IMG/VR virus record: IMGVR_UViG_3300014656_000042
Location: 1 to 47,829 of that record
Strand: one strand, 5' to 3'
Source: a virus
Lineage: Duplodnaviria; Caudoviricetes
Length of the DNA: 47,829 nucleotides
Part shown: one piece after another, positions 3,437 to 47,829 of the stretch
Numbering within the stretch: the first letter of the stretch is position 1
Layout of the letters: every line of letters begins with the position of its first letter
Notes under the pieces: model-generated
Told to the model about the DNA's origin: nothing
Database searches by the model: none
What the model saw: the letters and a program-made list of their open reading frames with translations, nothing else
Translations under genes and position numbers: made by a program

Positions 3437-3453
3437 CTAGGTGGAGATTTCTT

Positions 3454-3843: not shown

Positions 3844-3897
3844 CAAGTCGTTCAAGCGGACGGCAAACAACGCCGCTGCTTAACTCAGGCGTTAGAC
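3838..3897 (+). other. attC-like site 1
   Basis: ACATAAC-5 nt-GTT(C)AAGCGG(A)CGGC...GCCGCTGCTTAAC-6 nt-GTTAGAC; the unpaired C and A give extrahelical G and T on the bottom strand. Confidence 0.9.
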
Positions 3898-3912
3898 TCT
3901 TGGAGAAAAATA

Positions 3913-4176
3913 ATGGAAATAATTATATGTCATAAATGCAAAAACATTTTATTGGCCATAGATGGTTTACTTTCGGTTGATATCCCATTGCCGGGAAGTG
4001 CAATAGAATCAAAAATCAAATGCAAGTGCGGACAGGTTTCCACATTAAATATTATAAATAGACTCCAAGGATCAAGATACGATTGGCCAACCGAAGAACG
4101 CTTTTTGATAGACTGGAATGAAGTAAAATTTGAACCACGTGACAGGTCTAACCAAGCAAATTCAGCGGATTCGTAA
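3913..4176 (+). CDS. small Zn-ribbon-like protein (cassette ORF)
   Basis: CHKC...CKCG; GGAG RBS directly after R'. Confidence 0.7.
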   Translation: MEIIICHKCKNILLAIDGLLSVDIPLPGSAIESKIKCKCGQVSTLNIINRLQGSRYDWPTEERFLIDWNEVKFEPRDRSNQANSADS

Positions 4177-4203
4177 ACTCACCGCTGATTTGCGCCGTTA
4201 TCT
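4146..4203 (+). other. attC-like site 2
   Basis: GTCTAAC-CAAGC-AAAT(T)CAGCGG...CCGCTGATTT-GCGCC-GTTATCT. Confidence 0.85.
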
Positions 4204-4216
4204 GGAAAGGAAAAAA

Positions 4217-4468
4217 ATGTTCTGTTGTGATAAATTTGCAAAAGAAGTGAAAGAATACAAAGCCCCTGTTGGTGGGGGTTTTTTATACCCAACGCCTAAC
4301 CCACAAGGTCAATTTGAGCAAGATGAAGATGGTAGTTGGAATGTCAATGGTTGCTGCGGTGGAGGGTGTTTTGTAGTCACTGGAATGTTGTTTTGTCCTT
4401 TTTGTGGGGCAAAATTACCAGATAACCAGTCATTTAAGGCGGATGGCGAAAAAACTGCCACCGCTTAA
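4217..4468 (+). CDS. small Cys-rich protein (cassette ORF)
   Basis: MFCCDKF...GCCGGGC...FCPFCG; start set to ATG 4217 after the GAAAGGA RBS. Confidence 0.75.
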   Translation: MFCCDKFAKEVKEYKAPVGGGFLYPTPNPQGQFEQDEDGSWNVNGCCGGGCFVVTGMLFCPFCGAKLPDNQSFKADGEKTATA

Positions 4469-4481
4469 TTCCACGTTAGAC
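4420..4481 (+). other. attC-like site 3
   Basis: AGATAAC-CAGTC-ATTTAAGGCGGATGGC...GCCACCGCTTAAT-TCCAC-GTTAGAC. Confidence 0.85.
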
Positions 4482-23136: not shown

Positions 23137-24513
23137 ATGAATGCTTTAGCGAATTTACAGCCTATTAATCCCAGGGCACAACAACAAACCACTCAAAATA
23201 TATTATCAAATCTATTAAAGGGGGGCAGGTCTACACAATCCCCTCAATTAATGCAACCATGGAGAGGAACAGGTCCCGGCGTAATTAATGGACTTGTGGT
23301 AGAGGAAAAAAAGAAAAAAGACCTTCAGCGTAATTTTTCGCTGGCTTTAAATGATATTCTGGAATTAAAGAAAACGACCGGGGAAAATGTTCCTCCAAAT
23401 GAAATAATGAGTATCATGTTAAAGAGAAATATCCCTGCCACTGTTTCCCAGGACTTTACCGCCAAGATGCTTAAAATGGAGAAGGCTTATTCTAAGCCGC
23501 CTGAACCACCTAAAACAAGAGAGTTCTTTAATAAAGAGAGTAATGTTTATGAAAGAGAGCGGTGGAACCCAACAATCGGATGGGAAAAGACGGGACAGAT
23601 ATCGAAACCAGGCCCCAAGGAAGACAAGCCAAAGACCACAGATTTAAAATATTGGACTAAAGAAGGCATCCCAAAAACATTGAGGGGTGTTGAAGATGTA
23701 AGCGATGCTGAAACAAAATTAAAAGAACAGGGTTTTTTACTGTATGATCCGATTGCCTTTGACAAAAAAGGACTTGAGTTAAAAGCTGCACGAAAAGCAT
23801 TTAATACGCCTGAACTAACAAGAACAGAGGCATTGAAGGCGATAAAAGATGCTGGAAAAGAAATAGTAAAAATTAAGACTACTGGTGGTATGGATGAAGC
23901 AAGTTTTATAATAATGGAAACACTTGATCCTGAAAGAGCAAAGGCAATTAAAGAATCAGGTGATATTAAAGAGGCCGTTAGGTTGATTAAAGACTACCAG
24001 AACCATATAAGGACAACTTTCTTGGGCGGGAAGAGACCCCCCACTGGTGAACAAGGTGATAAAGATTTTGATAGTATCCCAATAAGAGAACCTCACCCAA
24101 AAGAGCTTGATTATTTTCGGAAAAACCCAAATGTTACTGGTATGGCAACAGAAGATAATGCTGTAATACTAAATCCATATTCAAATCTTTCACCCTCTCA
24201 AAAAGAATCCGTAATTACAAATGAAAAAGCACGGATTTTTATAAGAAAAAATGGACTTACCCCAGACTTTCAATTAACCGATAAGCAAAAAGAAATATTT
24301 AAAGATTATGGGTCGGATAAAGATATCAAGGAAACAATTGCGGCAAGAATTTTAACGAGCGATCCGTCAGCCGGTGATGTAACACCAGAACAAAAACTGT
24401 GGGTTAAAAGCACATTTAATTTTGCGATTGGCAAGCCAACAGATAAAAAGCCGGGTCTGAAAAGACATCCGATTTATAAGACAAAAGACGATGACTGGAG
24501 AAATTACAGATAA
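23137..24513 (+). CDS. putative internal virion/ejection protein
   Basis: 458-aa ORF coupled to the giant gene by a TAATG overlap. Confidence 0.55.
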   Translation: MNALANLQPINPRAQQQTTQNILSNLLKGGRSTQSPQLMQPWRGTGPGVINGLVVEEKKKKDLQRNFSLALNDILELKKTTGENVPPNEIMSIMLKRNIPATVSQDFTAKMLKMEKAYSKPPEPPKTREFFNKESNVYERERWNPTIGWEKTGQISKPGPKEDKPKTTDLKYWTKEGIPKTLRGVEDVSDAETKLKEQGFLLYDPIAFDKKGLELKAARKAFNTPELTRTEALKAIKDAGKEIVKIKTTGGMDEASFIIMETLDPERAKAIKESGDIKEAVRLIKDYQNHIRTTFLGGKRPPTGEQGDKDFDSIPIREPHPKELDYFRKNPNVTGMATEDNAVILNPYSNLSPSQKESVITNEKARIFIRKNGLTPDFQLTDKQKEIFKDYGSDKDIKETIAARILTSDPSAGDVTPEQKLWVKSTFNFAIGKPTDKKPGLKRHPIYKTKDDDWRNYR

Positions 24514-30500: not shown

Positions 30501-33500
30501 GCGTTTTATGATGAGCTATTGCCTGGGTTCCTGAAGAAGTACGGGAAGCAGTGGGGGGCACAAGTATCAACAACTGATATCCCTGATTCATACTTTGTGC
30601 CAAAATCTTTTGATGAAGAGGGCGAATTTGATGAAGAGGGCGAAGTGGTAACGGATTTCATTAAATTCCCCTCCATCACCATAACCCCGGAAATGAAAGA
30701 GTCGGTCTTGTACGAAGGCCAGCCGATGTTCGCTTTCGGTCAAGTTCCACTTACGCCCAAAGAAATAACCAGTATATCGGATGCTACGGAGATAGCCGTT
30801 AATGCCGTTAAGCAGCTCATGCCCCGGAGTTTGTGGGACAAGATATCGGTTGAAGCAAAACCCCTTATAAAAATAGATCATGCGAGTGTTAAGAGAATTA
30901 TACAAGAGCGTGGATTGCAAATGCTTCCTTTTGATCAGATCATGGGGGCGGCAAATGTTGATCTTCCAAGTATAGGGGCTGTCATAGAAGTGTCAACAGC
31001 CTTCGGTCGTGGAGAAGTCAAAGAGGCGGCTTTCCATGAAACAGGGCATGTGGCATTTAAATGGTTATTAGATGAAAAAGATTATAGCGCCGCTTTGAAA
31101 TATCATGGCAATGAAGAAGCGTTCGTCAAAGATTTCGGCAAGTGGGCCTCGGCCAAGACAAAACAGGAACAAATGACTGGGCGCCCCAACTGGCTTTATC
31201 GGATATACGCAAAGCTTAAAAGATACTTTACTTTAATTGGTAATGCCCTAAAGAAAAAAGGCTATTACAGGCCGGAAGATGTGTTCGGGAAGATGTGGAC
31301 ACAGCAGTACAAGGTTCAGCCGGAGAGTGTGATAAAAAAGAGATTAAGAGGGGCGGCGTTATCCGTTGAAACTCCTGAACAATGGGCAGCTAGAATGCTT
31401 CGGGATATTGATGCCAGTCCACCGTCATCATCTAATACGATAGAAAATGAACTACATAAAAAAGCAAAATCTCCAGGTGGAACTATTCTCCCGGATAGTG
31501 CCATAAAAGATAGCAAGGTAGCGGATATGCTCCTTGAATCTTCAAAAGCAATCGAGCCAATATTAAAAGGTGAAATATCCCTTAAAGGTGCCCTAAAAAA
31601 AGCTGGTATCAGCGACCCTAAAGCCATGAAAGCCTACGAACGAATCATTGGGACTCCGTATTTCCTTGGCAAAAAATACAAACGCACGGGTAAATTAGTT
31701 AATGTAGGGGTCGGTGCAGCGGAAGAAAGGGCAACTGAAAATAAAAAGGACTTTGATATCGCCAGGAACTTCTTGTCTTTAAAGGGTAAAGAGTTAAATG
31801 AAATGCGTCAGCTTATATGGGCCGTTGAGGGAAAGCCTTTCCCTAAAAATTCAGGCATTCCTGATAAATTTAAGAAAATCGAAAAAGGTAGCCCTATCGA
31901 GTTGAATTCCGACCATTATACAAAGATGGCCGATTGGTTGATTACACAGGGAATCACCCCCAAAGTGGCAAATGCCTTCGCAGATGTCCGTAAATCGTAT
32001 GATACCATTTTCGTTAAACTTGATAAGGCTATGAAAAGGTTTAATGTTGATGAGGACGACATAGAGAAATATAGACAATTAATAGGCCAGATACATAACT
32101 ATTTTCCACACCAAAGGGATGGAAATACTTATGCCGCTATAATCGACCCGGAAGTTGAAAAACTCATCCTTACAAAGGCTGGCAGACCCTTCAAAACTCA
32201 GAGTGCCCTCCTTATGGCCCTTCGTAGGCAGGGTAAACTCAATACCCATAAGCCGGAAATGGTGGGCGAACGGAAGTGGGTAGGAGTAGAGAAGTCAGGG
32301 AAGAATATCGAAACCCTTATGTCCTATAAAAAGAAAGACGACCTATTTAATAAAACCCTTTATAATGAACACTTCAACTCCTTTATGGGCCGGTCATTAC
32401 ATGGAGACATTCGTAAGCGATTAGTTCAATGGGCACATGATAACGGCCATGAAAATGTGACCGAAAAAAATGTCAAAATAGGAAAAGTTACCAGCCTGCC
32501 GGATTCTGTATTTTTCAATGTAGACATATCGGCGATAAGCCAGATTATTGATTCGGCTGCTGATCGTGTTGATGATAAAGCCGTTGCAAAGGAGATCAAG
32601 AAGGTTTTACCAAAAGCTATTGCAGAGGTGTTTAAGCTCCGGGGTTTTGGGCAAAGAATGATTAAACGGAAGGATGTCCCAGGATATGAAACCCAGGATA
32701 TTAAAGGTATTTATTATAATTATGTGACTGGTGCAAATGGCATGGTTTCAAAGATGGGCAGCGCTTATAACTATTCGACTATTTTAAACGAAGAACGGGC
32801 ACGCTACCGACCTATAGAGCATGACTATAATAAAAACTATGTAAAGGACATGCTTACAAATGTAGACAGGCTTGATAGAGCAGTTGATAATCTCAGGGCA
32901 TTTTTCTTCTTTAAATATTTGGGTGCGATACCAAAAAGTGGGGTCGTTAATCTTACTCAAAATATTGTTGCGGCATGGCCCCGACTATCTGTGTGGCATG
33001 ACCCAAAAACCGGCAAGGCAGAAACAGTTAAAGGATCAAGTTTATACCTTACAAAAGCTATGCTGGATGTCCGGGGTGCAATAACCGATATAAAAGCAAA
33101 GGGCAAGGGGCTTGATAGATTAAAAGGTGATGAGAGAAAGGCATTGAAAGAGGGTTTGAGCAGTGGCCTTACAACTGCTCAATATTTACGAGAAGTAAAG
33201 GGAGAGATAGGATTCAGGCACAAGACTATAGGAGATGTCATGTTTGTTGCAGGTCTTCCTATGCAACTTGCGGAACAATATAATAGGGCCTCAACATTTT
33301 TAGCTGGGTTCAGGATTGCTGAAAAGAAACTTGGCAAAGACTATACTTATGAAAAAGCGTATTCCTATGCAAAGGAAGCCACCATTGACGCACATTTCCT
33401 GTATGGCAAAGAGAATTTACCGGAGGTTATGCGGGGAACTGTTTTGGGTAAAATTATACGGCCAGCCTATACGTTCAGGACTTTCACGCATCAATATGCA

Positions 33501-34331
33501 GGTCTAATAAATTGGCTTGTAAGACAGGGCGGTCCGGGGCAAAAAGCGGCATTAAAATCGATGGTTGGGATTATGAGCGCAGGGGGGTTGTTATCGTTGC
33601 CTTTTTATGAGTTATGGAAAAACCTGTTCGACGATGACCCGGCGACAACCATTCGTAATCAGATTGATCCGAATTGGCTAAAAGATATTGTCATATACGG
33701 TGGCCCGGGAGGTTTAGGTGTTGATTTACATGGAAGTATATCTATTGAAATTCCTCGTAATATGAAAGATATTATTGGGGTGCCTTACGCCTTATACGAA
33801 GATACAAAAAACATGATATCAGACCTCAAACTAAAGGATTACACAAGAGCTATAGAAGAATCACCTGTTACCCCAATGCTTGCAAGAAACATTATGGCGG
33901 CACGCAGGCTTTACGCAAAAGGGCAGTTCACAAGATCGGGCAGGCCGATCAGTGGTATTTTAGGCGGGAGTACAACGGCCAAGAAAATAAGCGGGGCAGA
34001 GGCAGCTGGTAAATTGTTGGGTTTTCAACCAGTGTCTAAAAGCAAGGCATGGCAAGGGTATAAAGTTTTCAGGGAGGCAACAGATGAGGCAAAAGAACAG
34101 CAAGGCCGTTTTGCAACAAGGCTAATGAGTGCGATTAGAGATAAGAACAAAAAAGAGATTAAGGACATATTTCAAGAAGTAATGAAATATAATAAAAAGG
34201 CTCGGGAAGATAACAAGCCTATTGTTGTATGGGAAAACCTAAAGAAGTCTTTACAGACAAGAACAAAGAGCAGGAAACCACCTAAAGTGGCAATCCCCTA
34301 TGCCTTAAAAGTACAACGGGCATGGGAATAA
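24513..34331 (+). CDS. giant polyvalent DNA-injection protein (ParB-like, ART-PolyVal-like, HExxH peptidase-like domains)
   Basis: 3272 aa; INPLIVV..ILEGATR; NFKKWF..FYHGT..YVVFNPTQIKS; LFLEEVQSDW; FHETGH; helical C-terminus. Confidence 0.8.
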   Translation: MLSVLQQWDEDPEFQNLDYAEKEKVYLNYFDRNMKDDEFNILPIEEQSRIKSNFVQRRVRQPRQERLSLVPKRPPDSVLSRVPQKAVPIEVPDATPGYTKTIGKGLLSGVESLAGGIGSFARWTGEVTRDPWLVKLGKDASNYWKEAQTEGIAKPDPTIYKGSFIENPSLKRAVGIVAQAIPSMGGAVVASIVTGQPWIGAAMLGLMEGAPQYEEAREAGKGITESSYYGVLSTAGTAMLEYLPISRMFKFRGGVATGAIKGAGEESVQEATQTIWQNLIAKLGYDDSKSLAEGIIESIIGGFGAGGIAGGTIAKLNNISEKAKEAGVTELEIKEAWDDIQGQIIELTDKIEPTTARPGDELSEGMPAPSKAKPPSPIPPRSGGALLEETPPAPGVPPSAVRPSKVVTEMPIPERPTGLERLRGRFAGKEGRLVEEAEKVEPGAKEPWEMTKENLKTKYHIAGGVVDGRKVRSKIPNMSSIEATVDTPTVLKGIYEIPLSEFEGSLTGKHYSTAGTKSIAELADEIAKSKEINPLIVVVDKEGPYILEGATRAESLYKLGAKSFPAKVVIDEGSFFDAVKQAQAEDKVIPKGVLAEYPELKAKEAAKEPKEAPVGEEKITKGVVEGVKEAPRGATVEGERAAIEKATRLHKRSYGLKPKNSLARLLEAKQILEQAGVDKNTEIYTETDRLIGNYKKRLGIVDATAEAPKRVLTSDTFAGLAKKSDELQVIIEAKHDELEKAGLTWEEQNKNPELSKLYDEANKFETAAAVKGYEGAKKIITDELGVDVPVDTLYASVDSILREHYSLTKEPIGAYMMRKYTGEALSNVDETVLKVAKDISKLLLARDAPQADWFATMESPVSGLTRKGKEAYVKEGLSKAKAIHGKITKFFLPMAKPTKMIGDKEWVGVEKKIPKRVLASDTIEGVKDNLVIQAKDGTIYESSRAGSPIHGMMLDEFNVKAEDIERTGLTVESGKILWSDSLKGLKPTPEQVKAAKKKVRKKVSRASSAKTIRAWIAASGGVNPGDTAWAGELGDIRWDYNRYGRKVPAKKFPPGFWNRKSRSLDERVTDAIEAGWLAPGSTDQDLMSAIEANIGDKYIDLAQGFDFGGVTEEQLKGEELRLKAELEERYGKDFENNEQYKIDFAEVNAEFKDKKPSEEEINKELGNLFQIETVEEPKFVLTPSEPTPKEKIAIGRMKGEIKRPPKGVKPRAKVPEGEIKVATAGKQATILEPKKYEDRELFEPKEKAPEKIAEPTPGMVRIQKINKTVPFTEYHEFTKGKDKGKVSVRYHSRNYIVAKESVKKWPGGAVTDLMVADKKALSEYEKTANFKKWFEKSVATVSGKVGGEPRVFYHGTATVFKAFKPGKHDIGIHLGTADQASDRLEFIAGEKIVLDSQSIIPVYSNFKNPLVLKSDPGLFNIDNFPFALEETGKFSEKEIEVFKKYEHQLWDIEEKYRESEDEEGFSESDELQEVIDDFKGEVHGLLGKHGFDSIKYWNTGEIKGMAAIMHRISAAKTSEEKSKIYKEKEALEKKGGDWSYVVFNPTQIKSTYNIGTWSETDPNISLQVRTPVEPMYSQLIKTIEQKPSELPKKAQSIIPWLKKNQVKPAELKWMDVEGWIKENQKDGVIDRAAFIEFLKGHQIEIQEVVKGFTPDDAKRLDELDNKLRSEGLTRSEQEEYNHLTSQEAFPATEGVKYAAYQEPGGTDYQEMVFTLPGTTLPEGWRIEETKEGNFAVYNPLGSHLGNWPTRESAEKSQLSQPGSRAYRAAHWDEPNVILHVRHNTRTDSEGNKVLFLEEVQSDWLQEAKEKGFGVRYRWVAIDKHNMPDGYFDTEEEAKARAKEIGGTFEQNLHAPKGVPPAPFLDTWHEYALKRMLRYAAENGFDKVAWTNAKQQFARWGSDRYAWERQSDGTWLVEGTEQSGGQFEGGNIEEVARREGILKEINAQTVKTKDDLKRIISALHREQGKVNVLTDKIWNKMQTASKDVHMPRWEGMKAFYDELLPGFLKKYGKQWGAQVSTTDIPDSYFVPKSFDEEGEFDEEGEVVTDFIKFPSITITPEMKESVLYEGQPMFAFGQVPLTPKEITSISDATEIAVNAVKQLMPRSLWDKISVEAKPLIKIDHASVKRIIQERGLQMLPFDQIMGAANVDLPSIGAVIEVSTAFGRGEVKEAAFHETGHVAFKWLLDEKDYSAALKYHGNEEAFVKDFGKWASAKTKQEQMTGRPNWLYRIYAKLKRYFTLIGNALKKKGYYRPEDVFGKMWTQQYKVQPESVIKKRLRGAALSVETPEQWAARMLRDIDASPPSSSNTIENELHKKAKSPGGTILPDSAIKDSKVADMLLESSKAIEPILKGEISLKGALKKAGISDPKAMKAYERIIGTPYFLGKKYKRTGKLVNVGVGAAEERATENKKDFDIARNFLSLKGKELNEMRQLIWAVEGKPFPKNSGIPDKFKKIEKGSPIELNSDHYTKMADWLITQGITPKVANAFADVRKSYDTIFVKLDKAMKRFNVDEDDIEKYRQLIGQIHNYFPHQRDGNTYAAIIDPEVEKLILTKAGRPFKTQSALLMALRRQGKLNTHKPEMVGERKWVGVEKSGKNIETLMSYKKKDDLFNKTLYNEHFNSFMGRSLHGDIRKRLVQWAHDNGHENVTEKNVKIGKVTSLPDSVFFNVDISAISQIIDSAADRVDDKAVAKEIKKVLPKAIAEVFKLRGFGQRMIKRKDVPGYETQDIKGIYYNYVTGANGMVSKMGSAYNYSTILNEERARYRPIEHDYNKNYVKDMLTNVDRLDRAVDNLRAFFFFKYLGAIPKSGVVNLTQNIVAAWPRLSVWHDPKTGKAETVKGSSLYLTKAMLDVRGAITDIKAKGKGLDRLKGDERKALKEGLSSGLTTAQYLREVKGEIGFRHKTIGDVMFVAGLPMQLAEQYNRASTFLAGFRIAEKKLGKDYTYEKAYSYAKEATIDAHFLYGKENLPEVMRGTVLGKIIRPAYTFRTFTHQYAGLINWLVRQGGPGQKAALKSMVGIMSAGGLLSLPFYELWKNLFDDDPATTIRNQIDPNWLKDIVIYGGPGGLGVDLHGSISIEIPRNMKDIIGVPYALYEDTKNMISDLKLKDYTRAIEESPVTPMLARNIMAARRLYAKGQFTRSGRPISGILGGSTTAKKISGAEAAGKLLGFQPVSKSKAWQGYKVFREATDEAKEQQGRFATRLMSAIRDKNKKEIKDIFQEVMKYNKKAREDNKPIVVWENLKKSLQTRTKSRKPPKVAIPYALKVQRAWE

Positions 34332-41482: not shown

Positions 41483-41607
41483 GTCCCCCCCCTTTCTTTT
41501 ATGTCCCTAAAATTAATGTCACCTTTAATTTGCCATAACAAACTGGACACGGCACACTTATAGCAGTATTTTCTGAATATCTGGCAACCCAAACTTTATC
41601 GCCAATT

Positions 41608-41793
41608 TTAAACCTTTCCATTAGCTACCACCTCCTCCACTTTGATCTTAATCCGCTTGCCATCATACCTTTTTAAGGCATCTAATAGCTTTTTCTGATC
41701 TTTCAGATAAATATATCCTTGTTTTGTAAACCGGATTGGAATAATCTCTTTTATTTGATTGTACCAAAGTAATGACTTAATTATGATCTTCAT
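41608..41793 (-). CDS. hypothetical protein
   Basis: 61-aa ORF coupled to the upstream gene by ATGA. Confidence 0.55.
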   Translation of the reverse strand: MKIIIKSLLWYNQIKEIIPIRFTKQGYIYLKDQKKLLDALKRYDGKRIKIKVEEVVANGKV

Positions 41794-41999
41794 GATGTCA
41801 CCTCCTTTTTAGTAGCACATTTATTGATGTGTGCCTTCGCCTTTTCATACTCCCAGACCTCTAATAACCTATTGCAAACTGGGCAATGCTTTGGAAGCGG
41901 TTTAATATGAGAAAAACTCCCCATATATTCTTGTTTAAAATATTCATCCGCCCTATCTAAAGAAGGGTGACATTTTATCAAATCATCATAAAGGCTCAT
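41790..41999 (-). CDS. hypothetical protein (CxxC...HxxxC)
   Basis: 69-aa ORF with AGGAG RBS. Confidence 0.6.
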   Translation of the reverse strand: MSLYDDLIKCHPSLDRADEYFKQEYMGSFSHIKPLPKHCPVCNRLLEVWEYEKAKAHINKCATKKEVTS

Positions 42000-42265
42000 G
42001 GTATTTCTCCTAAAGTATATGAAAGTTTTGGTTGGCTAAATTTAATTTCAGGAATCGCAATCTCTTTTATAGAGCTTGCTTCAATATCAATCTCAAATAA
42101 TTGGTATTTCTTATGATCTGGCTCAACCACAAAACTTGGAGATCTGTCGTTATAAATGTAAATCGCTGCTTGTTCAGGAGAACTCATAATTTTAACATTT
42201 GGGCTGTTTTGATAACCCCCACCAAAAGACCACGTTACAGTTATTATTAAAATTAATATTTTCAT
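41996..42265 (-). CDS. hypothetical exported protein
   Basis: 89-aa ORF with AGGAG RBS and hydrophobic N-terminus. Confidence 0.6.
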   Translation of the reverse strand: MKILILIITVTWSFGGGYQNSPNVKIMSSPEQAAIYIYNDRSPSFVVEPDHKKYQLFEIDIEASSIKEIAIPEIKFSQPKLSYTLGEIP

Positions 42266-42291
42266 TTTAATCTCCTTTCTTTGAATACGAA

Positions 42292-42339
42292 GGCCAACGC
42301 GGAGGTGAGCGGTTTATCCGCTCCACCTCTTTGTTAACC
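42292..42339 (-). other. attC-like site 4 (48 nt)
   Basis: GGTTAAC-AAAGA-GGT(G)GAGCGG-ATAAA-CCGCTCACC-TCCGC-GTTGGCC. Confidence 0.85.
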
Positions 42340-42468
42340 CATAAGATAGCATTTTAAAAAACCAAGTCCCCCAACAAACCAACCCATTAAAGCTACCCAG
42401 TTTCGATTTAAAATAGCAAAGACAATATTTACAACAGCCAGTATTACTACCAATAAATCTAATGTCAT
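42334..42468 (-). CDS. small 2-TM protein (44 aa, cassette ORF)
   Basis: AGGAG RBS; MTLDLLVVILAVV...; stop in R''. Confidence 0.65.
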   Translation of the reverse strand: MTLDLLVVILAVVNIVFAILNRNWVALMGWFVGGLGFLKCYLMG

Positions 42469-42491
42469 AAGAATTTCTCCTTTTTAAAAAG

Positions 42492-42549
42492 GGTTAACGT
42501 AAAGATCAAGAGCACCCGTTAGAGTGACTCTTGAATCTTTTGGTTGTGC
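42492..42549 (-). other. attC-like site 5
   Basis: GCACAAC-CAAAA-GAT(T)CAAGAG(T)CAC...GTGCTCTTGATC-TTTAC-GTTAACC. Confidence 0.85.
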
Positions 42550-42683
42550 TCTTTACAATAGGTTGCCCAGATCTCAGTCGTATAAGCAGAATCAGGCAAA
42601 ATCATATAATGGGTCGCCTTACCACTATCTAAATCTTCGTAGCTAATAAATCTGCCACACTCATCACATCTAAAATAGTTCAT
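42519..42683 (-). CDS. small Zn-finger protein (54 aa, cassette ORF)
   Basis: MNYFRCDECG...YCKEH; GGAGG RBS. Confidence 0.65.
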   Translation of the reverse strand: MNYFRCDECGRFISYEDLDSGKATHYMILPDSAYTTEIWATYCKEHNQKIQESL

Positions 42684-42700
42684 TTTGTTTCCCTCCAAAA

Positions 42701-42827
42701 GCATATCGATTCCATCAGCGGCGGGATAATAGTTGCATGATATCTGAAATTGACGCTCCATTATTAACCTGCTCATGAATTTCAATGGCAAAGCTTTCAG
42801 CCCGTCCGCTGGATTGGCGGGTTAGGT
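42701..42827 (-). other. attC-like site 6 (127 nt, degenerate R')
   Basis: ACCTAAC...AT(C)CAGCGG(A)CGGG-long loop-CCCGCCGCTGAT...GATATGC. Confidence 0.7.
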
Positions 42828-42972
42828 ATTTGTTTAGCTCAGATATAATCAGTGGTATTTCACGCTCTCTGTCTTTTATTGAAATGGATGCCCATTGATA
42901 CCCGTTGTGTGTAATAGACAAATACAATTCCCCATGATCAACCTTGCATTTCACATCATAATTTTTATTCAT
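42715..42972 (-). CDS. hypothetical protein (cassette ORF)
   Basis: 85-aa ORF (LSITHNGYQW); the C-terminus reads through the attC. Confidence 0.7.
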   Translation of the reverse strand: MNKNYDVKCKVDHGELYLSITHNGYQWASISIKDREREIPLIISELNKYLTRQSSGRAESFAIEIHEQVNNGASISDIMQLLSRR

Positions 42973-42977
42973 AAATC

Positions 42978-43000
42978 CCCTAACAGAGCAATAAGTGTAA
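42978..43000 (-). other. attI-like primary site (left array)
   Basis: TTACACTTATTGCTCTG|TTAGGG, 18/20 identical to the motif at 44314. Confidence 0.6.
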
Positions 43001-43066
43001 ACACTCCCACCCGATATGTGCAGGATGTCTCACCCACGACAGTGACCAGGGGGAGCGTGTTGGCTC

Positions 43067-43297
43067 CTATTGTTGTACCTCTTCATGAGTTGGTTGGTCA
43101 GTGGCGTCACAGGTATGATACAGGCTATTATATACCCTTTCCCATTCCTTAGGGTTAGCTAAATAATCCCCCAATGCTTTCCAAAGTTCTTCTCTTGTGG
43201 CGAAAACAAACCTCCCACATCCTACCTTTGCATAAAAACCTTTATTGTCAGATGGTTCGATTGTGATTTTGTGATTTATTGCCTTGCCAAATTCCAT
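43067..43297 (-). CDS. hypothetical protein
   Basis: 76-aa ORF with AGGAGG RBS. Confidence 0.7.
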   Translation of the reverse strand: MEFGKAINHKITIEPSDNKGFYAKVGCGRFVFATREELWKALGDYLANPKEWERVYNSLYHTCDATDQPTHEEVQQ

Positions 43298-43761
43298 TTT
43301 ATTTCCTCCTTAAATTAACCCCCGGCCCCTATGGCCGAGGGCTTCTTCCCAGATATAACTTAATTCACCCTTTCGATCTCCTTTCCGAATTTCATAAAAT
43401 GGTTTTACTGAAAAGTTGTATGAGCGGCTATCGATTAGGCTGTTAGTTGCATGGAAACACGGTTTATATTCCCTATCCGATTGAGCCTCTATTTTTATTA
43501 GATTAAGCTCGTATGGGAATCGGGATTTTAAAGTAACCGCCCTAAATGATTTTCCCGCATAAAATAAAACAATAAAAACAGTCCCAAATTAAGAGCCCAA
43601 ATAATGATTGCTTTCTTTGTGTCCCCATCTAAGCCACGTAATGCTTCTATTATTGCTTTTAACTTCTCCATTGCAATCTCATTGGTTTATTTTTAAACCG
43701 CCCTAAGCGTCCCACAGGCCAGGTTGGGCCGTTTACAGGGACGGCAAAAGGCAGTAAGGTT

Positions 43762-43992
43762 TTAGGTATTAGGGGACTTCGGTTTTTTATTTCCTTTAGT
43801 ATATGGCATCCAGTGTGTGACATCATCTGTTAAAAAACCTCCTCCCCCGATAAAAAGATGCTTTCCAAATATTTCATCTTTTGTGCCTTCCAAGCTGTGA
43901 TATGTCATGACAGATATACCCGTATGCACAAAATATGTCCATGTTTTTTGACCCTCGATTGGGACTTTATCTTCTATCTTTATCCATTTCAT
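43762..43992 (-). CDS. DUF551-like phage protein
   Basis: MKWIKIEDKVP...VTHWMP. Confidence 0.7.
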   Translation of the reverse strand: MKWIKIEDKVPIEGQKTWTYFVHTGISVMTYHSLEGTKDEIFGKHLFIGGGGFLTDDVTHWMPYTKGNKKPKSPNT

Positions 43993-44000
43993 TTTGACCT

Positions 44001-44090
44001 ATCATTACATATTTCAAAAACCTTGTCAAGGAAAAAAACAACGTAAAATATAAAAAAATAGTTGACAGGTCATTTTTGATGTGATAAAAT
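44001..44090. promoter_or_regulatory. divergent sigma70 promoter pair (switch region)
   Basis: Plus strand TTGACA(44062)-17-TAAAAT(44085); minus strand TTGACA at 44029 with a weaker -10. Confidence 0.6.
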
Positions 44091-44100
44091 GCCTTTCATT

Positions 44101-44313
44101 ATGGTAAAATTAAATAGAAAAAAGGTAAGGCAAATCCTTCGACAAAAAGGCTGGCCCGTCTCGGAGCTGGCCCGGCGATTGGGAACGAGCCGGTCTGGCG
44201 TTCATTTCACCCTAACCCGAGCCCCTAAGTACCAAAATCAAATCGGCCTGGTGAGGAGGTGGGCTGAGGCCCTGGGTGTGGAGGGGGCTGAAATTATGGA
44301 GATCGTAGAGTAA
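44101..44313 (+). CDS. Cro/XRE-like HTH regulator
   Basis: KGWPVSELARRLGTSRSGV...WAEALGV; probably a near-leaderless transcript. Confidence 0.75.
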   Translation: MVKLNRKKVRQILRQKGWPVSELARRLGTSRSGVHFTLTRAPKYQNQIGLVRRWAEALGVEGAEIMEIVE

Positions 44314-44336
44314 TTACACTTATTACCCTGTTATCT
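44314..44336 (+). other. attI-like primary site (right array)
   Basis: TTACACTTATTACCCTG|TTATCT directly after the cro stop; no upstream hairpin arm. Confidence 0.6.
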
Positions 44337-44350
44337 GCAAAGGAGATAAA

Positions 44351-44590
44351 ATGAATAATATTAAACAATTTCAAAAAGAATTGGAAGGATTAATCAATAA
44401 ATATTCTATCGAGAATATATGTGATGTCCCTGATTTTTTATTAGCTGAAATAATCACAAGCATAATTATTAATTCAGGGCCAACCATTAAAAAAGTGCTT
44501 GATTGGCATGGGTGTGATTCTGTTTGTCATCCACAGGTAGATAACAAGGCACTGAAGCGGAATGGCGATAAAGCGCCGCCATCCGTTTAG
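44351..44590 (+). CDS. hypothetical phage protein (cassette ORF)
   Basis: LINKYSIEN..DVPDFLLAE; AGGAG RBS. Confidence 0.75.
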   Translation: MNNIKQFQKELEGLINKYSIENICDVPDFLLAEIITSIIINSGPTIKKVLDWHGCDSVCHPQVDNKALKRNGDKAPPSV

Positions 44591-44604
44591 TTTTTTCGTT
44601 GTCT
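44539..44604 (+). other. attC-like site 7
   Basis: AGATAAC-AAGGC-ACT(G)AAGCGG(A)ATGGCG...CGCCATCCGTTTAGT-TTTTTC-GTTGTCT. Confidence 0.85.
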
Positions 44605-44620
44605 TCTTGGAGAAAAAAAT

Positions 44621-44860
44621 ATGGAACCTGTAGGATCATCAAGGCGTTATGAATGCTCTGAATGCCTAAAGGAGTATGAAACCAAGTCCGATGCGCTGGA
44701 ATGTTGTGAATTTTTCAAGGTTTCTGTGGTTTATGTCTGTGGCTGTGGTCGGAAATATAGCGACTATAATAGGAACGGTTGTCCATCTTGCCGAGCGTTG
44801 TGGGATGAGTACACAAAAATAATGACCGACAACAAGTCAATTCACGGGATAAACCCGTGA
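44621..44860 (+). CDS. small Zn-finger protein (cassette ORF)
   Basis: YECSEC..A.ECC, CGCG..CPSC; GGAG RBS. Confidence 0.7.
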   Translation: MEPVGSSRRYECSECLKEYETKSDALECCEFFKVSVVYVCGCGRKYSDYNRNGCPSCRALWDEYTKIMTDNKSIHGINP

Positions 44861-44874
44861 TTTCCACGTTATGC
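44827..44874 (+). other. attC-like site 8 (48 nt)
   Basis: CGACAAC-AAGTC-AAT(T)CACGGG-ATAAA-CCCGTGATT-TCCAC-GTTATGC. Confidence 0.85.
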
Positions 44875-45008
44875 ACTTTAAAAAAGGAGTATAGAGATGG
44901 AAATGGAAAAGGAACCATATAAAATTGTGACACGTCGAGCAGCGCAGACAAGATTTTTTCCTGACTGGTGGTATTTGTGGAAAGAATACTTGTTTATAAG
45001 CGAACGCA

Positions 45009-45221
45009 ATGACTCTTAAAACTACCATATGCATATCATTTATAATCCTGTTAGCCTCTGCCTGCTTCTGTGGGATTATGGCCTTTGACCAGATGCTTGC
45101 CCAGATGCAGTCAAGGCCGATGCCGCTTGTGATACATAATGCCCGGTACGTTGAGGTGATTAAAGGGGAGCTTTTTATTAAGCCGGCAGAAAAAGAGGTG
45201 GAAGTGGGGAAGAAGAAATGA
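45009..45221 (+). CDS. hypothetical membrane-anchored protein
   Basis: 70-aa ORF with an N-terminal TM. Confidence 0.55.
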   Translation: MTLKTTICISFIILLASACFCGIMAFDQMLAQMQSRPMPLVIHNARYVEVIKGELFIKPAEKEVEVGKKK

Positions 45222-45370
45222 CGCTTGAATTATTTAATTGCACAAATGTATTGCTCAGAGAAATTGCAATGGGGGAGGCGAAGCAACACGATATAGCTAT
45301 GACATACGCCCTGGCTTTGAGATCATCCGATCCTACCGATTGGAAGGCTATCAAGGAGGTAAAGACATGA
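45218..45370 (+). CDS. small hypothetical protein (50 aa)
   Basis: ATGA-coupled at both ends; MTLELFNCTNVLLREIA. Confidence 0.5.
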   Translation: MTLELFNCTNVLLREIAMGEAKQHDIAMTYALALRSSDPTDWKAIKEVKT

Positions 45371-45564
45371 AAGACTTTATTGATTCTATTGAAGAAGCAA
45401 AAAAGTTACAATCTAAAATAGCGGCGGCTTTAAATGCTATGAAATTTCACAAAGAAGATTATAACGAAAATGAGGTACTTTTCCGGCTGACCGCTATAAA
45501 GGATATGTTAATTATAGCTCATAATGATGCGTGTGCTCTTGTGAGGTTTTGGAGTGACGAATGA
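45367..45564 (+). CDS. hypothetical protein (65 aa)
   Basis: Start set to ATG 45367 after AGGAGG. Confidence 0.6.
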   Translation: MKDFIDSIEEAKKLQSKIAAALNAMKFHKEDYNENEVLFRLTAIKDMLIIAHNDACALVRFWSDE

Positions 45565-45944
45565 CGACTGACTGGAAACCCATAGCAGAGAAGATGAAAT
45601 ACCAGGACGGTAAGGGCGTTTTAGAAGACCTGTATGGCAAGCAGGAGCTGTCGTCTAATCTGGTGGCGGATAAGATCAAGGCTTTGGAAGGGGAGTATAT
45701 CACGGGTGTAACGGTTATAAGATACGCCCGGCGATGGGGCATTAAGATCAGGCCTAAGGGCGGGGTAAATAATGTAAGTGATGACCGGGAGAAGCTGTTG
45801 GCCTTAAAGGGCGGGACCAAAGATATGACGGCTAAAGAACTTGCAAAGGCGTGCGGGATGTCTTTAAATTGGGCATACAATCTTATACGGAAAATGGGGA
45901 TTGAGTTTAAAAGAAAATCTCGGATTAAGAAAAAGGAGGATTAA
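45561..45944 (+). CDS. HTH DNA-binding protein
   Basis: MTAKELAKACGMSLNWAYNLIRKMGI. Confidence 0.65.
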   Translation: MTTDWKPIAEKMKYQDGKGVLEDLYGKQELSSNLVADKIKALEGEYITGVTVIRYARRWGIKIRPKGGVNNVSDDREKLLALKGGTKDMTAKELAKACGMSLNWAYNLIRKMGIEFKRKSRIKKKED

Positions 45945-45945
45945 T

Positions 45946-46173
45946 ATGAAAATGCCCTTCGGAAAATACGGCCCTAACAAGTTTCCGCCTGCCGGAGTTG
46001 ATATTTGTTTTATTAATTCAGGCTATCTCAAATGGTTGTTGGAGCAGGACTGGTTTATCATGGAACGAGATGAGAGAGAAGCAATAGCTGTTCAAAAAGA
46101 ACTGGAAATGAGGGATATGGACAGCTCTCATTTTTACAAAGATAAGGTGTCTTTAAAGAACAAAAGCCAATAA
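45946..46173 (+). CDS. DUF3820-like protein
   Basis: MPFGKY...YLKWLL; AGGAGG RBS. Confidence 0.65.
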   Translation: MKMPFGKYGPNKFPPAGVDICFINSGYLKWLLEQDWFIMERDEREAIAVQKELEMRDMDSSHFYKDKVSLKNKSQ

Positions 46174-46200
46174 TAATACTTTAAAGAATAATGAAAGTCA

Positions 46201-46458
46201 ATGATAAAGCCTCAAGATGCAGGGGATTTACTAAACGAATTAATGTATCACATTTCATTTTCCCATTGTGATATGGGTGGAAAGCATCGTTACGTTTTAC
46301 GGGCTGATGGTTGGCCGGTAGTTTCAAAGATTAAGGCATGGCAAGCCAAACAAGCCGATCCAGTGGACAGGAATTTAGTGGTGTGCCCAGGCTGCGGGTA
46401 CAAATCTGACCCGGTTTTACACTGCGAAAAGTGCGGCCAGAATAGGCCGCTGATCTAA
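46201..46458 (+). CDS. hypothetical protein with C-terminal Zn ribbon encoded within an attC
   Basis: CPGCG...HCEKCG lies inside attC 9. Confidence 0.65.
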   Translation: MIKPQDAGDLLNELMYHISFSHCDMGGKHRYVLRADGWPVVSKIKAWQAKQADPVDRNLVVCPGCGYKSDPVLHCEKCGQNRPLI

Positions 46459-46467
46459 TCGTTAGAC
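46345..46467 (+). other. attC-like site 9 (123 nt)
   Basis: GCCAAAC-AAGCC-GAT(C)CAGTGG...CCGCTGATC-TAATC-GTTAGAC. Confidence 0.7.
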
Positions 46468-46483
46468 TTTTTGGAGATAAATT

Positions 46484-47311
46484 ATGGCATTAGAAAAACA
46501 AGAGGCATGTCAGCTTTATATTGAGCAGGAAATAGAAACCGGACTTGAAAAGGGACAAACGCCATATCAGATAGGTAAGCAGGTAGCTGAATGGGTGGAA
46601 AAGCTGTTCGAGGTGGCGGTTAAACCGGATACGATTAGAAAGAGGGCCGACAGACAATTAAGGACAAATGTCCATAGTGACTTAACCGATGGAAATAATG
46701 AGGAAAACGAGGAAAAACCGGTTAAACCGGTAATTGTGAGGAACGAACAAGGCCAGTTCAGCGAAGGAACAAAAATAGCTGGGCCAGGCCGTCCTCCGAA
46801 GTTTAAAGCAGTAGAGCCAGCACATCGAACCCAATTCACTGGTGAGAATGAATGGTATACGCCAATAGAGTACATAGAAGCTGCACGAGAAGTATTAGGC
46901 TGTATTGATTTAGATCCCGCATCTTCTGAATTTGGCCAGAGAAGAGTTTTGGCGCAAGATTTTTATACAAAAGAAACTGATGGTTTAACAAAGGAATGGA
47001 CGGGTAATATTTGGTTGAATCCTCCATATTCACAACCAAGCATTTCACAGTTTATTGAAAAAGCTGTTTTAGAATGGGATGAAGGCCGAATAAAAAAAGC
47101 TATTATTTTAACTCATAATTACACAGACACTGCATGGTTCCATATAGCAGAATCAAGGGCAAAAAACTTATGTTTTACACGAGGGAGAATAAAGTTTGAA
47201 TCTTCTGATGGGAAGATTGCTGCCCCAACTCAAGGCCAATGTTTTTTTTATTATGGAAATAATGGTAATAAATTTAAAGAGGTTTTTATAAAATATGGTT
47301 TTATCAGGTAA
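46484..47311 (+). CDS. phage DNA N6-adenine methyltransferase (Dam-like) with N-terminal extension
   Basis: NEWYTP, IDLDPAS, WLNPPYS, TDTAWF and RGRIKF. Confidence 0.85.
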   Translation: MALEKQEACQLYIEQEIETGLEKGQTPYQIGKQVAEWVEKLFEVAVKPDTIRKRADRQLRTNVHSDLTDGNNEENEEKPVKPVIVRNEQGQFSEGTKIAGPGRPPKFKAVEPAHRTQFTGENEWYTPIEYIEAAREVLGCIDLDPASSEFGQRRVLAQDFYTKETDGLTKEWTGNIWLNPPYSQPSISQFIEKAVLEWDEGRIKKAIILTHNYTDTAWFHIAESRAKNLCFTRGRIKFESSDGKIAAPTQGQCFFYYGNNGNKFKEVFIKYGFIR

Positions 47312-47738
47312 AGGTTTTAATCCCATGCGATGGGATTGTGAAAAACAAGGGTGTTTCAATGTGAAAAGACGGCCTAAAATAGAAGTGTTTCATGATTGTT
47401 TTCCCGGTAGAATAAATTTTGGAGATGTTGATGGTATTGTTGAAATTAATGGTAAAGGATTGATGCTTGAATGGAAAACTTCTATGAAAAACCTGTCCTT
47501 CCCTCTTGGACAAAGAATCATGTATGAACGACTGACCTCTGATTATAGATTAACTGTTTTAAGTATTATAGGTGATGCGGAAACAATGGATTGTCAAAAA
47601 TATTGTATTTTTTTTGGCGGGAATCAGGGAAAATGGATTGATGCTGGCTTAGATGAAATAAAAACACGTATTAAAAAATGGGTATCATGGGCAAAGTCTA
47701 ACCAAGCGGTTCAGCCGATGCCTAACGGCACTGGCTGA
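47295..47738 (+). CDS. PD-(D/E)XK-like hypothetical protein
   Basis: GDVDGIVE....LMLEWK...GQR; overlaps the MTase gene. Confidence 0.55.
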   Translation: MVLSGKGFNPMRWDCEKQGCFNVKRRPKIEVFHDCFPGRINFGDVDGIVEINGKGLMLEWKTSMKNLSFPLGQRIMYERLTSDYRLTVLSIIGDAETMDCQKYCIFFGGNQGKWIDAGLDEIKTRIKKWVSWAKSNQAVQPMPNGTG

Positions 47739-47752
47739 CCTTAATGTTATGT
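47696..47752 (+). other. attC-like site 10
   Basis: GTCTAAC-CAAGC-GGT(T)CAGCC...GGCTGACC-TTAAT-GTTATGT. Confidence 0.85.
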
Positions 47753-47777
47753 TTTAATTCCAAAGGAGATAAAATAA

Positions 47778-47829
47778 ATGGATTGTGCAGAAAAACAATG
47801 TCTCTCTGTTAAAATAAAGGCTTTTACAG
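47778..47829 (+). CDS. next cassette ORF (partial)
   Basis: AGGAG RBS after R'; MDCAEKQCLSVK... runs off the window end. Confidence 0.55.
   Translation, partial: MDCAEKQCLSVKIKAFT

Follow-up and report, generated by a model that had tools for sequence, protein, structure and literature searches.

We propose that the predicted early operons of a groundwater phage contain a pair of minimal attI docking sites, and that this phage likely uses a host IntI in trans to insert attC cassettes at them, a reading to which we give a probability of roughly two in three. The DNA analysed here (the window) is the linear record IMGVR_UViG_3300014656_000042, whose 47,829 nt make up ~84-85% of the genome. The full assembly is a 57,356-nt contig that is circular by end overlap (a genome of ~57.2 kb), and ~9.4 kb of it lie outside the window. 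A preliminary description of this sequence had reported ten attC sites at three loci. It overlooked the two array heads, which are the most informative part of the locus: they match the attI site found beside bacterial intI genes, and the phage therefore likely borrows the integrase of its host.

All ten of the attC sites claimed are real and lie where they had been placed. A covariance model and a matrix scan group them into three clusters of three, three and four sites: array A on the plus strand (A1 to A3, at 3838-3897, 4146-4203 and 4420-4481), array B on the minus strand (B3, B2 and B1, at 42292-42339, 42492-42549 and 42701-42827) and array D on the plus strand (D1 to D4, at 44539-44604, 44827-44874, 46345-46467 and 47696-47752). 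Each cluster has at least two attC sites within a few kb, as in a CALIN. The anatomy is also as first described, with an R″ ending in AAC, a spacer of ~5 nt, an imperfect hairpin and a GTT or, once, GAT core. In every site the R″ is followed by a 5-nt spacer and an 8-nt L″ whose fourth base is unpaired, while the other arm consists of a 7-nt L′, a 5-6-nt spacer and the R′ core, which begins with GTT in nine sites and GAT in one (site 42701). The unpaired bottom-strand base is A in five sites and C in two; only 3/10 have the classical unpaired G.

A covariance model had been suggested as a check on these sites. Ours was home-built from only 20 attC sites, picked in three phage records of Qi et al., and it gave 15 window matches at E<=10, the best nine of which are nine of the ten claimed sites (32.6-12.4 bits, six of them at 20 bits or more; the next-ranked match scored 9.7). 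The GAT site was not recovered in this search, and the match for attC 44539 extends to the wrong end. A two-arm matrix scan derived from the same published sites found 8/10 at scores of at least 24, with the next best at 17.5; sites 4146 and 42292 were removed by its pre-filter. Under this matrix, 100 shuffles gave a mean of 0.2 matches at 20 or above and a maximum of 2. Two other scans were dropped: an energy-only hairpin scan did not separate attC sites from background, and a first rule-based scanner gave 13 matches against a shuffled mean of 13.2. We discounted a hairpin at ~43000-43065, upstream of the head of array B, as a possible eleventh site, since it has no L″/L′ pair and a matrix score of 14.3.

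The preliminary description had further claimed that the R″ of each attC is complementary to the core at the start of its own cassette rather than to its own R′, and that this would fail if shuffled controls did equally well. The R″ matches its cassette start at 31/36 variable positions and its own R′ at 14/36, and permutation does not reproduce this equally often (p = 2.2e-5 for nine cassettes; p = 7.9e-4 for the seven attC-to-attC cases). Perfect start-match runs are 7, 9, 6, 8, 7, 6 and 10 nt long, plus one match of 5/7. The pattern does not extend to D3, where 2/4 positions match, and no cassette start is identifiable for A1; there are thus eight, not ten, clean cassettes. Together with the matched heads described below, the start complementarity supports the earlier proposal that IntI-type cassettes were inserted at G|TT. 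Predicted folding of the bottom strand is poorer than that of two validated TJE1 attC sites (pfold 0.65 and 0.84), with values of 0.006-0.31 in the eight short sites and, in the two long sites, of 4e-4 and 4e-6, and the bottom strand has no clear folding advantage over the top strand. Judged by their anatomy and statistics, the ten are true attC sites, and we predict that they are recombined by an IntI.

In array A, attC A1 is the best covariance match (32.6 bits) and ends a 129-aa ORF (3454-3843); upstream of it there is neither a cassette start nor an attI core (the head motif is absent at up to three mismatches). Cassette A2 (3892..4197) encodes an 87-aa CxxC protein (3913-4176) and has a start match of 7/7. 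A copy in metagenome run X3 is 91% identical in an alignment that begins exactly at 3891, and the 34 bases preceding it are unlike this phage's. Cassette A3 (4198..4475), with a 9-nt perfect start match, carries an 83-aa zinc-ribbon ORF (4217-4468; PF13240 match below cut-off), and the small terminase gene lies directly downstream.

Array B, on the minus strand, begins with cassette B1 (42707..42983), whose R″ matches the R box of the head at 6/7 positions. Its 85-aa ORF (42715-42972) has its last ~37 codons inside the 127-nt attC with the GAT core, and six homologs of the protein have a common core and differing tails. Cassette B2 (42498..42706; covariance score 21.2 bits, start match 5/7) encodes a 54-aa CxxC protein (42519-42683), and B3 (42298..42497; 8-nt perfect start match) a 44-aa hydrophobic protein (42334-42468) whose stop codon falls in R″.

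Array D, on the plus strand, opens with D1 (44331..44598; start match 7/7) and D2 (44599..44868; 24.1 bits, start match 6/7), encoding a 79-aa protein (44351-44590) and a 79-aa Cys-rich protein (44621-44860). The 123-nt attC D3 (20.4 bits), into which ORF 46201-46458 extends with its Cys-rich end, is preceded by ~1.47 kb with several ORFs; it matches the previous R′ at chance level and barely folds (it is the site with a pfold of 4e-6). D3 is probably decayed or fixed, and its cassette start is not identifiable. The two-gene cassette D4 (46462..47746) has a 10-nt perfect start match and carries a Dam-family methyltransferase (46484-47311; PF05869) and a putative nuclease-like protein (47295/47325-47738).

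All ten genes are forward relative to their attC; genes opposite to attC polarity, 0/10 here, number 66/88 in other viral loci. In bacterial-type cassettes, forward genes stop before or in R″ (19/19, mostly training records), whereas 8/10 genes in this phage end inside their attC. A ribosome-binding site stands straight after G|TT in nearly every cassette. PADLOC, run on 12 proteins, recognized only an orphan methyltransferase.

Arrays B and D each begin at a sequence that by its match to bacterial sites is an attI core; array A does not. The core heading array B (42978..43000, minus strand) consists of an L box, a 5-nt spacer and an R box, with the crossover after the G at 42984, and its sequence recurs with 19/19 nt identity in L263, L270 and L281, where it lies 140 nt upstream from a divergent intI. 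The core heading array D (44314..44336, plus strand; crossover after the G at 44330) is identical to the same bacterial core in 17/19 nt, and its R box matches the R″ of the first cassette at 7/7 positions. The two heads are the sole pair, 1 of 1,280,800 GTT pairs in the window, in which at least 14 of 16 upstream bases are alike. A broad matrix from nine genome attI sites placed neither head in the top 12 of 1,601 window GTT sites; the argument for attI therefore depends on the exact match with a single attI lineage. The likeness between phage and bacteria is confined to the ~20-nt core, and the ~70-nt conserved stretch preceding the bacterial core is not common to both; this short core may be a sufficient target for IntI, and we predict that it serves as the docking site.

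Head D lies directly behind the stop codon of an HTH repressor/Cro-like gene (44101..44313, plus strand), for which the ORF 44089-44313 has weak PHROG and Pfam HTH matches; the same layout of an HTH gene followed by an attI core recurs in L269, L271 and L277. Near the heads, the only candidate cassette promoters that stand out are a divergent phage-type pair within 44001..44090. These sigma-70-like promoters, at 44029-44001 (minus) and 44062-44090 (plus), match 10/12 and 11/12 consensus positions, with a TG, and are predicted to drive two early operons containing arrays B and D.

To find the same core elsewhere, we used a pattern built from the phage heads alone. It matched 27 metagenome loci, three of them this phage's own 57,356-nt contig. 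In four of the 24 non-self loci (L262, L263, L270 and L281) a divergent intI starts 59-140 nt before the exact core, and bacterial neighbours of core loci include pcm (L270), argH (L266) and a histidine kinase (L265). Several intI copies near the core are truncated (189 aa in L281, 80 aa in L270, a 61-aa stump in L262). The L281 IntI falls into one 90% cluster with a 330-aa protein named 'integron integrase [Thermodesulfobacteriota bacterium]', which passes TIGR02249; four further relatives of this type of IntI have similar attI heads, and in a species genome (L295) a 17/19 core copy heads the first cassette. These sedentary chromosomal integrons of Desulfobacterota (the IntI clade of P0130; L263, L270, L281, L293-L305) resemble the phage arrays in attI core, attC anatomy and forward genes, but, unlike them, possess an intI in divergent orientation and an extended conserved region upstream. 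Co-evolution of attI sites with their own IntI has been described (PMC8946536).

The core is found in other phages as well. In the complete phage G001 an 18/19 core heads three cassettes, and this genome has no PF00589 match or tyrosine recombinase. A comparison of related contigs, proposed in the preliminary description, was made for other phages: the phage-like L269 and L271/L277 (with a Rha-like regulator and a repressor-like HTH) are ~94% identical up to the core, and their first genes differ. Similarly, L261/L272/L276 and L279 are alike in the bases just before the core and not in the first gene. No cassette was found at 10/24 of the non-self metagenome core matches, nor at 18/19 viral matches; a degenerate attI pattern gave nine matches in viral contigs, with an array only at that of G001. 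The head pattern gave four one-mismatch matches in 401 genomes of G003's phylum (a reversed control gave two), none with attC or intI. A blastn search with 41600-47829 found no match among 50,697 deposited phages.

We suggest the following mechanism. A circular cassette would fold the bottom strand of its attC, and a host IntI of Desulfobacterota type would recombine it with the double-stranded attI core, so that the newest cassette would land beside the head and older ones be pushed away. Transcription would come from the phage's own early promoters and not from an integron Pc. Array A and D3-D4 lack a head, which likely means either that it was lost or that insertion there was attC-by-attC or at a secondary site.

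The earlier suggestion that a host IntI, or a recombinase outside the window, performs the reaction can be narrowed, in that a host IntI is the likeliest enzyme; the host is suggested by terminase relatives and the attI match. Of the 14 closest genomic matches to the terminase, 10 are in Deltaproteobacteria/Syntrophaceae bins, and an IntI match occurs in 132/401 genomes from that phylum. As a single query, the terminase found no viral relatives. An attC cluster was present in 1/12 terminase relatives read whole or largely; across 90 terminase-relative loci, a covariance search with default filters gave one match, and matrix-scan clusters occurred only in L084.

The main alternative is that an integron integrase or other recombinase of the phage itself is encoded in the ~9.4 kb outside the window, in which case the phage would have a complete integron of its own and more than one attI site to go with it. 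We regard this as improbable, though the best of the alternatives. That no integrase is in view, as had been remarked, holds for the window, which has no PF00589 match; temperate phages with complete integrons have been published (PMC9892861), and the closest terminase relative encodes an ordinary tyrosine integrase. However, neither head adjoins an intI, unlike the bacterial loci, and in the first 504 bases beyond the window there is just the end of one 141-aa ORF. The remaining ~8.9 kb begin ~0.6 kb past the last attC, so that the absence of a nearby intI is a statement about the window. The IntI cut-off was passed by 0/24 viral records; the complete G001 has the same core and lacks a tyrosine recombinase; viral contigs contained no close relative of the L281-type IntI, and any tyrosine recombinase is missing from 12/14 near-complete viral records with such attC sites.

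A second alternative, which we consider unlikely, is that fragments of a host integron, gained once by ordinary or illegitimate recombination in the way Qi et al. suggest for phage CALINs, persist as inert arrays, with no IntI reaction on phage DNA. The claim that the phage acquires and shuffles genes stands as regards the G|TT-bounded cassettes, but ongoing turnover was not seen: four metagenome runs held no excised circle and no cassette-less form among their contigs, which drop rare forms. The poor folding of the two long sites and the G+C of the cassette regions (0.38-0.39, against 0.43 in structural genes) would also fit inert pieces. Against this reading, the phage has in common with the bacterial locus only the ~20-nt core, without the ~70-nt stretch before it, and the core is present twice, once straight after the stop codon of a phage gene; related phage platforms diverge from the first cassette onward. 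The clean cassettes are also short (164-262 nt for 7/8; the median is 274 nt in viral arrays and 412 in bacterial-type arrays), and elsewhere the Dam pair occurs as a module of phages.

Equally unlikely is entry at generic secondary sites (attG), followed by attC-by-attC growth, with the attI likeness of the heads reflecting only the target preference of IntI and not a site acquired from the host and retained by the phage. IntI1 inserts cassettes at 5′-GWT-3′ sites genome-wide, and the resulting SALINs resemble array A and D3-D4 in that insertion occurs outside an integron platform, a GWT core (one core here is GAT) is tolerated and attC can later be lost (10.1101/2022.09.11.507474). However, attG sites have a 3-nt consensus, which the 19/19 and 17/19 matches of both heads to one attI far exceed; arrays B and D each open with a full attI core, their heads are a unique pair in the window, and the core heads arrays in unrelated phage contexts. 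Finally, it is very improbable that the hairpins only look like attC and serve instead as signals between phage genes (terminators, RNA-processing sites or boundaries for homologous recombination): the similar folding of the two strands and the scarcity of the unpaired G would allow it, but RNA signals do not explain the fit to the attC model, the fixed spacing, the start complementarity or the attI-matched heads, and Rfam has no matches at these sites.

The cargo (tiny Cys-rich and membrane proteins, and the Dam methyltransferase with its putative nuclease) likely comes from a cassette pool circulating among phages of these hosts, a pool distinct from that of the host integron, whose cassettes are longer. 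The Dam pair is informative here: it is a precise cassette in this phage and a plain gene pair, without attC, in at least 11 other viral loci. At viral homolog loci of the nuclease gene, attC was found in 0/25, and in this phage the attC stands where the gene's own stop would be. This second protein is tentatively labelled a nuclease from its D-x-D...E-x-K motif and from a weak Atlas signal, one cluster having VRR-NUC in 14%; its predicted model (pLDDT 80) has no PDB match at E<=0.001. Methyltransferases make up 9/87 cargo proteins in other viral arrays, and there is one in this phage. The impression that the cargo is phage-like is thus borne out for at least this one module, and cargo was likely drawn from the phage gene pool. 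A broader scheme, which we offer only tentatively, is that phages infecting integron-rich anaerobes parasitise the host integron, keeping a host attI core in early operons for host IntI to load, and also make new cassettes by fitting attC to the 3′ ends of ordinary phage genes, so that they maintain their own pool and are a source of cassettes.

The view that integrons are generally not phage elements, from which the preliminary description started, is outdated, since attC arrays in phages have been published: Qi et al. (2023) report CALINs in 17 phage genomes among 10,705 deposited genomes surveyed, with methyltransferase cargo, recombination of 5/6 tested phage attC with IntI1, and capture by off-target recombination as a suggested origin (PMC9892861). 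The present arrays resemble those in their canonical attC clusters, TJE1-like short sites, methyltransferase cargo and, within the window, lack of a nearby intI, but the virulent-phage CALINs have 2-4 attC and no reported attI, whereas here ten sites lie at three loci, with two matched attI cores in predicted early operons. Another close case is the Shewanella prophage M16-3, in which a host-type attI, present twice, heads an integrase-less array (PMC9892861). Unlike this phage, M16-3 is a cryptic prophage that also has a complete integron with intact intI and host-like cassettes; here no intI is seen in the 85% of the genome that the window covers, the core alone is retained and the cargo is phage-type. 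Outside subscription journals and bioRxiv supplements, we found no other literature on host-matched attI in integrase-less phages.

As judged by pattern matches, the attC trait is not rare among uncultured phages: a search of about half the viral collection with a single narrow attC pattern turned up 123 viral loci, compared with the 17 published CALINs. A host-matched attI explains how integrase-less phage arrays could stay live, and a core matched to one lineage is a sequence-level clue to the host. The gene pair that is a cassette in this phage and consists of ordinary genes in others is a concrete test case for cassette origin. Integrons are now viewed as stores of anti-phage defence (10.1101/2024.07.02.601686); a phage with the host's own attI core would turn the integron to its own use, for example by gaining methyltransferases, and if phages do make cassettes, they would run their own pool and feed integrons.

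All ten attC sites claimed in the preliminary description were found with the layout of attC: array A at 3838, 4146 and 4420 (+), array B at 42701, 42492 and 42292 (-), and array D at 44539, 44827, 46345 and 47696 (+). Each site has an R'' ending in AAC, a 5-nt spacer, an 8-nt L'' whose fourth base is unpaired, a 7-nt L', a 5-6-nt spacer and GTT, which is replaced by GAT in one of the ten. An attC covariance model trained on 20 sites from three published phage-borne arrays yielded 15 matches at E<=10, and the best nine of these are nine of the ten sites. In a matrix scan based on the same published sources, eight of the ten sites score at least 24, and shuffled sequence gave a mean of 0.2 matches at 20 or above. 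The further claim that R'' is complementary to the start of its own cassette, and not to its own R', was also borne out (31 versus 14 of 36 variable positions, permutation p=2.2e-5; for the seven attC-to-attC cases alone, p=7.9e-4).

Eight units are clean cassettes. For A1 no cassette start can be recognised, and D3 (attC at 46345-46467) is preceded by 1.47 kb with several genes, has a start match at chance level and barely folds (pfold 4e-6). The pfold, as defined in PMC5371416, is 0.006-0.31 for the eight short attC sites, compared with 0.65 and 0.84 for two validated sites of phage TJE1, and the bottom strand has no clear folding advantage over the top strand. An ORF at 3203-3436 ends in an R''-like GCATAAC, which is directly followed by TAGGT and a ribosome-binding site (3430-3453). 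The motif may be what is left of an attC that lost its body by deletion, in which case A1 would gain a 6/7 start match. Over the A1 attC (3838-3897), the summed contig depth in groundwater run X1 reaches 1,331, versus 66 in the flank, and a close family of the site is therefore very abundant in that community.

Arrays B (leftward) and D (rightward) flank a divergent promoter-like pair and an HTH gene, and both start with TTACACTTATT.C.CT|GTT (head B, 42978..43000, -; head D, 44314..44336, +), a feature absent from the preliminary description. The GTT sites of the window form 1,280,800 pairs, and these heads are the sole pair with at least 14 of 16 upstream bases alike. The head pattern has 19 matches in viral contigs, 18 of them without a visible array; in L118, a record of 53,290 nt rated 100% complete that contains no tyrosine recombinase of any kind, it exactly heads three cassettes with perfect start matches. 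A refined pattern, derived from the three phage heads (B, D and L118), identified 27 loci in metagenomes, three of which are this phage. In four of the 24 others (L262, L263, L270 and L281) the core is identical to head B and a divergent intI starts 59-140 nt before it. The region upstream of the core is also common to L274, L266 and L265, and the adjoining genes are pcm, argH and a histidine kinase. In six of these 24 loci the first attC has an R'' exactly complementary to the head, and ten lack any trace of cassettes.

The 90% cluster that contains the L281 IntI also includes a 330-aa 'integron integrase [Thermodesulfobacteriota bacterium]' scoring above the TIGR02249 cut-off, and an IntI match is present in 132 of 401 species genomes from the phylum of a Deltaproteobacteria bin. 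In the closest IntI clade, five loci have related heads, each confirmed by the R'' of the first cassette, and one of these heads (L295) is 17/19 identical to head B. The cores beside intI, together with the related heads in this clade, show the head motif to be an attI core that belongs to a single IntI lineage, and only ~20 nt of the bacterial attI region have been kept by the phage. The intI gene beside the matching attI is truncated in L262, L270 and L281, and the same cluster has full-length members of 330-343 aa; that this loss is a host response to phages using intI is speculation.

The viral record itself is linear, 84% complete and covered in full by the window. Judged from its genes for the small and large terminase, a P22-like portal, a split major head protein and an adaptor, this is a tailed phage, probably podovirus-like. 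A 3,272-aa protein (24513-34331) with an ART-PolyVal domain and a weak match to a virion RNA polymerase family is probably an ejected polyvalent protein. A metagenome contig of 57,356 nt, which is 100% identical to the window across three pieces compared, has the same 123 nt at both ends, so the genome measures ~57.2 kb, ~9.4 kb beyond the window; the analysis covered 504 nt of this remainder. The phage is present in four groundwater runs, two of which may be its source. The major head protein gene contains a group I intron (RF00028, 82.9 bits, 12077-12400) that has no long ORF. Between radC and a Panacea-domain antitoxin gene lies an AT-rich stretch of ~1.5 kb (830-2330), almost without ORFs and with short repeats, which is a possible replication or packaging origin. 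The Panacea/SocA antitoxin-like gene (2336-2902) has no toxin match beside it; next to come is a tRNA-Gly(CCC) gene, encoded on the other strand.

IntI joins the folded bottom strand of attC to a double-stranded attI at G|TT, and the junction is resolved by replication (PMC8946536). We favour, with a probability of roughly 0.68 for the mechanism as a whole, a model in which the recombining enzyme would be the host's IntI, the cassettes would be expressed from the phage's early promoters, and the headless array A and the segment D3-D4 would stem from attC-by-attC or secondary-site insertion. As previously claimed, no integrase is in view: PF00589 has no match in the 47,829-nt window of the ~57.2-kb genome. 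A narrow attC pattern run on 33 of the 64 parts of the viral collection gave 123 viral loci (80 with up to 4 kb of flank), none with an IntI match. Tyrosine recombinases occur in seven of 50 records chosen from these loci (two of 14 among those at least 90% complete) and align with IntI only partially, at 19-38%; none of 24 viral records passed the IntI cut-off, and viral contigs yielded no close relative of the matching IntI. Of the 14 closest terminase matches in genomes, ten lie in Deltaproteobacteria or Syntrophaceae bins, a weak but concordant indication of such a host. The trait is patchy, with an attC cluster in one of 12 terminase relatives read whole or in large part.

Given these viral searches, it is unlikely that a phage-encoded intI serves the sites, although 8.9 kb of the genome lies outside the sequence scanned and the truncated intI copies in several matching bacterial loci weaken the case for a host enzyme. 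Passive capture of the arrays is improbable, and we give equally little credence to generic secondary sites; both have to be set beside paired heads that match a bacterial attI core. That the hairpins are not an integron feature is very hard to credit beside the complementarity of R'' to cassette starts.

The same core appears to be used by other phages. Loci L269, L271 and L277 have Rha-like regulators and a repressor-like HTH gene ending just before the core, the same layout as in array D. Up to the core, L269 and L271 have ~94% identity; they also share G|TTATAT and a short leader, after which their genes differ. The bases just before the core are likewise common to L261, L272, L276 and L279; the first gene of L279 is unlike that of L272 and L276, and methyltransferases come next in both. 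In the four runs, many other contigs share attC sites with the window, diverge at or just after GTT, and continue into other ribosome-binding sites and genes. The alignment of a 91% identical copy of A2 begins exactly at G 3891. The contigs of the four runs contain no junction of an excised circle, and they include no cassette-less form of this phage. The heads of viral arrays (L160, L179, L190, L229; L194, L204, L211; L201) group into attI-like families that recur, one example being GTCTATT-N5-GTT, and the L201 head differs from this phage's core at one base in 16.

The preliminary description had held that integrons are generally regarded as chromosomal or plasmid rather than phage elements. 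Cassettes in phages are however known, since Qi et al. 2023 reported 17 CALINs (clusters of attC lacking intI) and three complete integrons among 10,705 phage genomes, with methyltransferase cassettes and with five of six phage attC sites active with IntI1 (PMC9892861). The cryptic Shewanella prophage M16-3 described there resembles our phage in having a host-type attI before a CALIN, but has its own intI. The ten-site observation in this phage is real, and our literature search found no published phage whose early operons contain a pair of bare, host-matched attI cores, and no report of one attI core common to phages with different cassettes.

The seven single-gene cassettes measure 164-262 nt to the end of R'', and D4 (46462..47746), which encodes a Dam-family methyltransferase and a putative nuclease-like protein, 1,242 nt. 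Eight of the ten genes extend beyond R'' and stop 31-114 nt inside attC; in bacterial-type cassettes, mostly from training records, all 19 forward genes reach their stop codon before or within R''. Six homologs of the B1 protein (P0268-P0273), compared as proteins only, agree over the first ~55 residues and have different tails, the part that attC encodes here. The long attC loops at 42701-42827 and 46345-46467 are protein-coding, and several cysteines are found in the D3 loop and in four of the B1 homologs' tails, as though an exchangeable C-terminus were provided by the variable portion of attC. Among the other phages that have this type of attC (L118, L135-L214), 66 of 88 cassette genes run against the attC polarity (by locus, 24 of 41 all reversed, 10 all forward and 7 mixed), versus two of 21 in bacterial-type arrays; the window is among the minority with forward genes. 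The operons of L118 and L145 have their attI-like head at the downstream end.

The family of the putative nuclease gene of D4 is large, with 499 matches, and viral. The available flanks (up to 2.5 kb) of 25 viral loci with a homolog of this gene lack attC, five of them rechecked by covariance model, and a Dam homolog is directly upstream in 11 of the 25. In one terminase relative, whose 46-kb record is free of attC, the Dam and D4 genes occur as a pair with 60% and 57% identity. At L023:11690-11735, a loose likeness to the attI core precedes an attC-free Dam homolog, with a GTTAGAA core just before the start codon; this is possibly a decayed head. Conversely, an ORF outside the cassettes here (45218-45370) is 74% identical to the gene of a precise cassette in L145. 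The pair that is free elsewhere and the ORF that is cassette-borne in L145 indicate that the same genes occur inside and outside cassettes, and our literature search found no phage gene pair reported in both forms. The free copies of the Dam pair could reflect loss of attC after insertion, a process that has been described (10.1101/2022.09.11.507474), but the simpler reading of the Dam pair is the birth of a cassette from phage genes.
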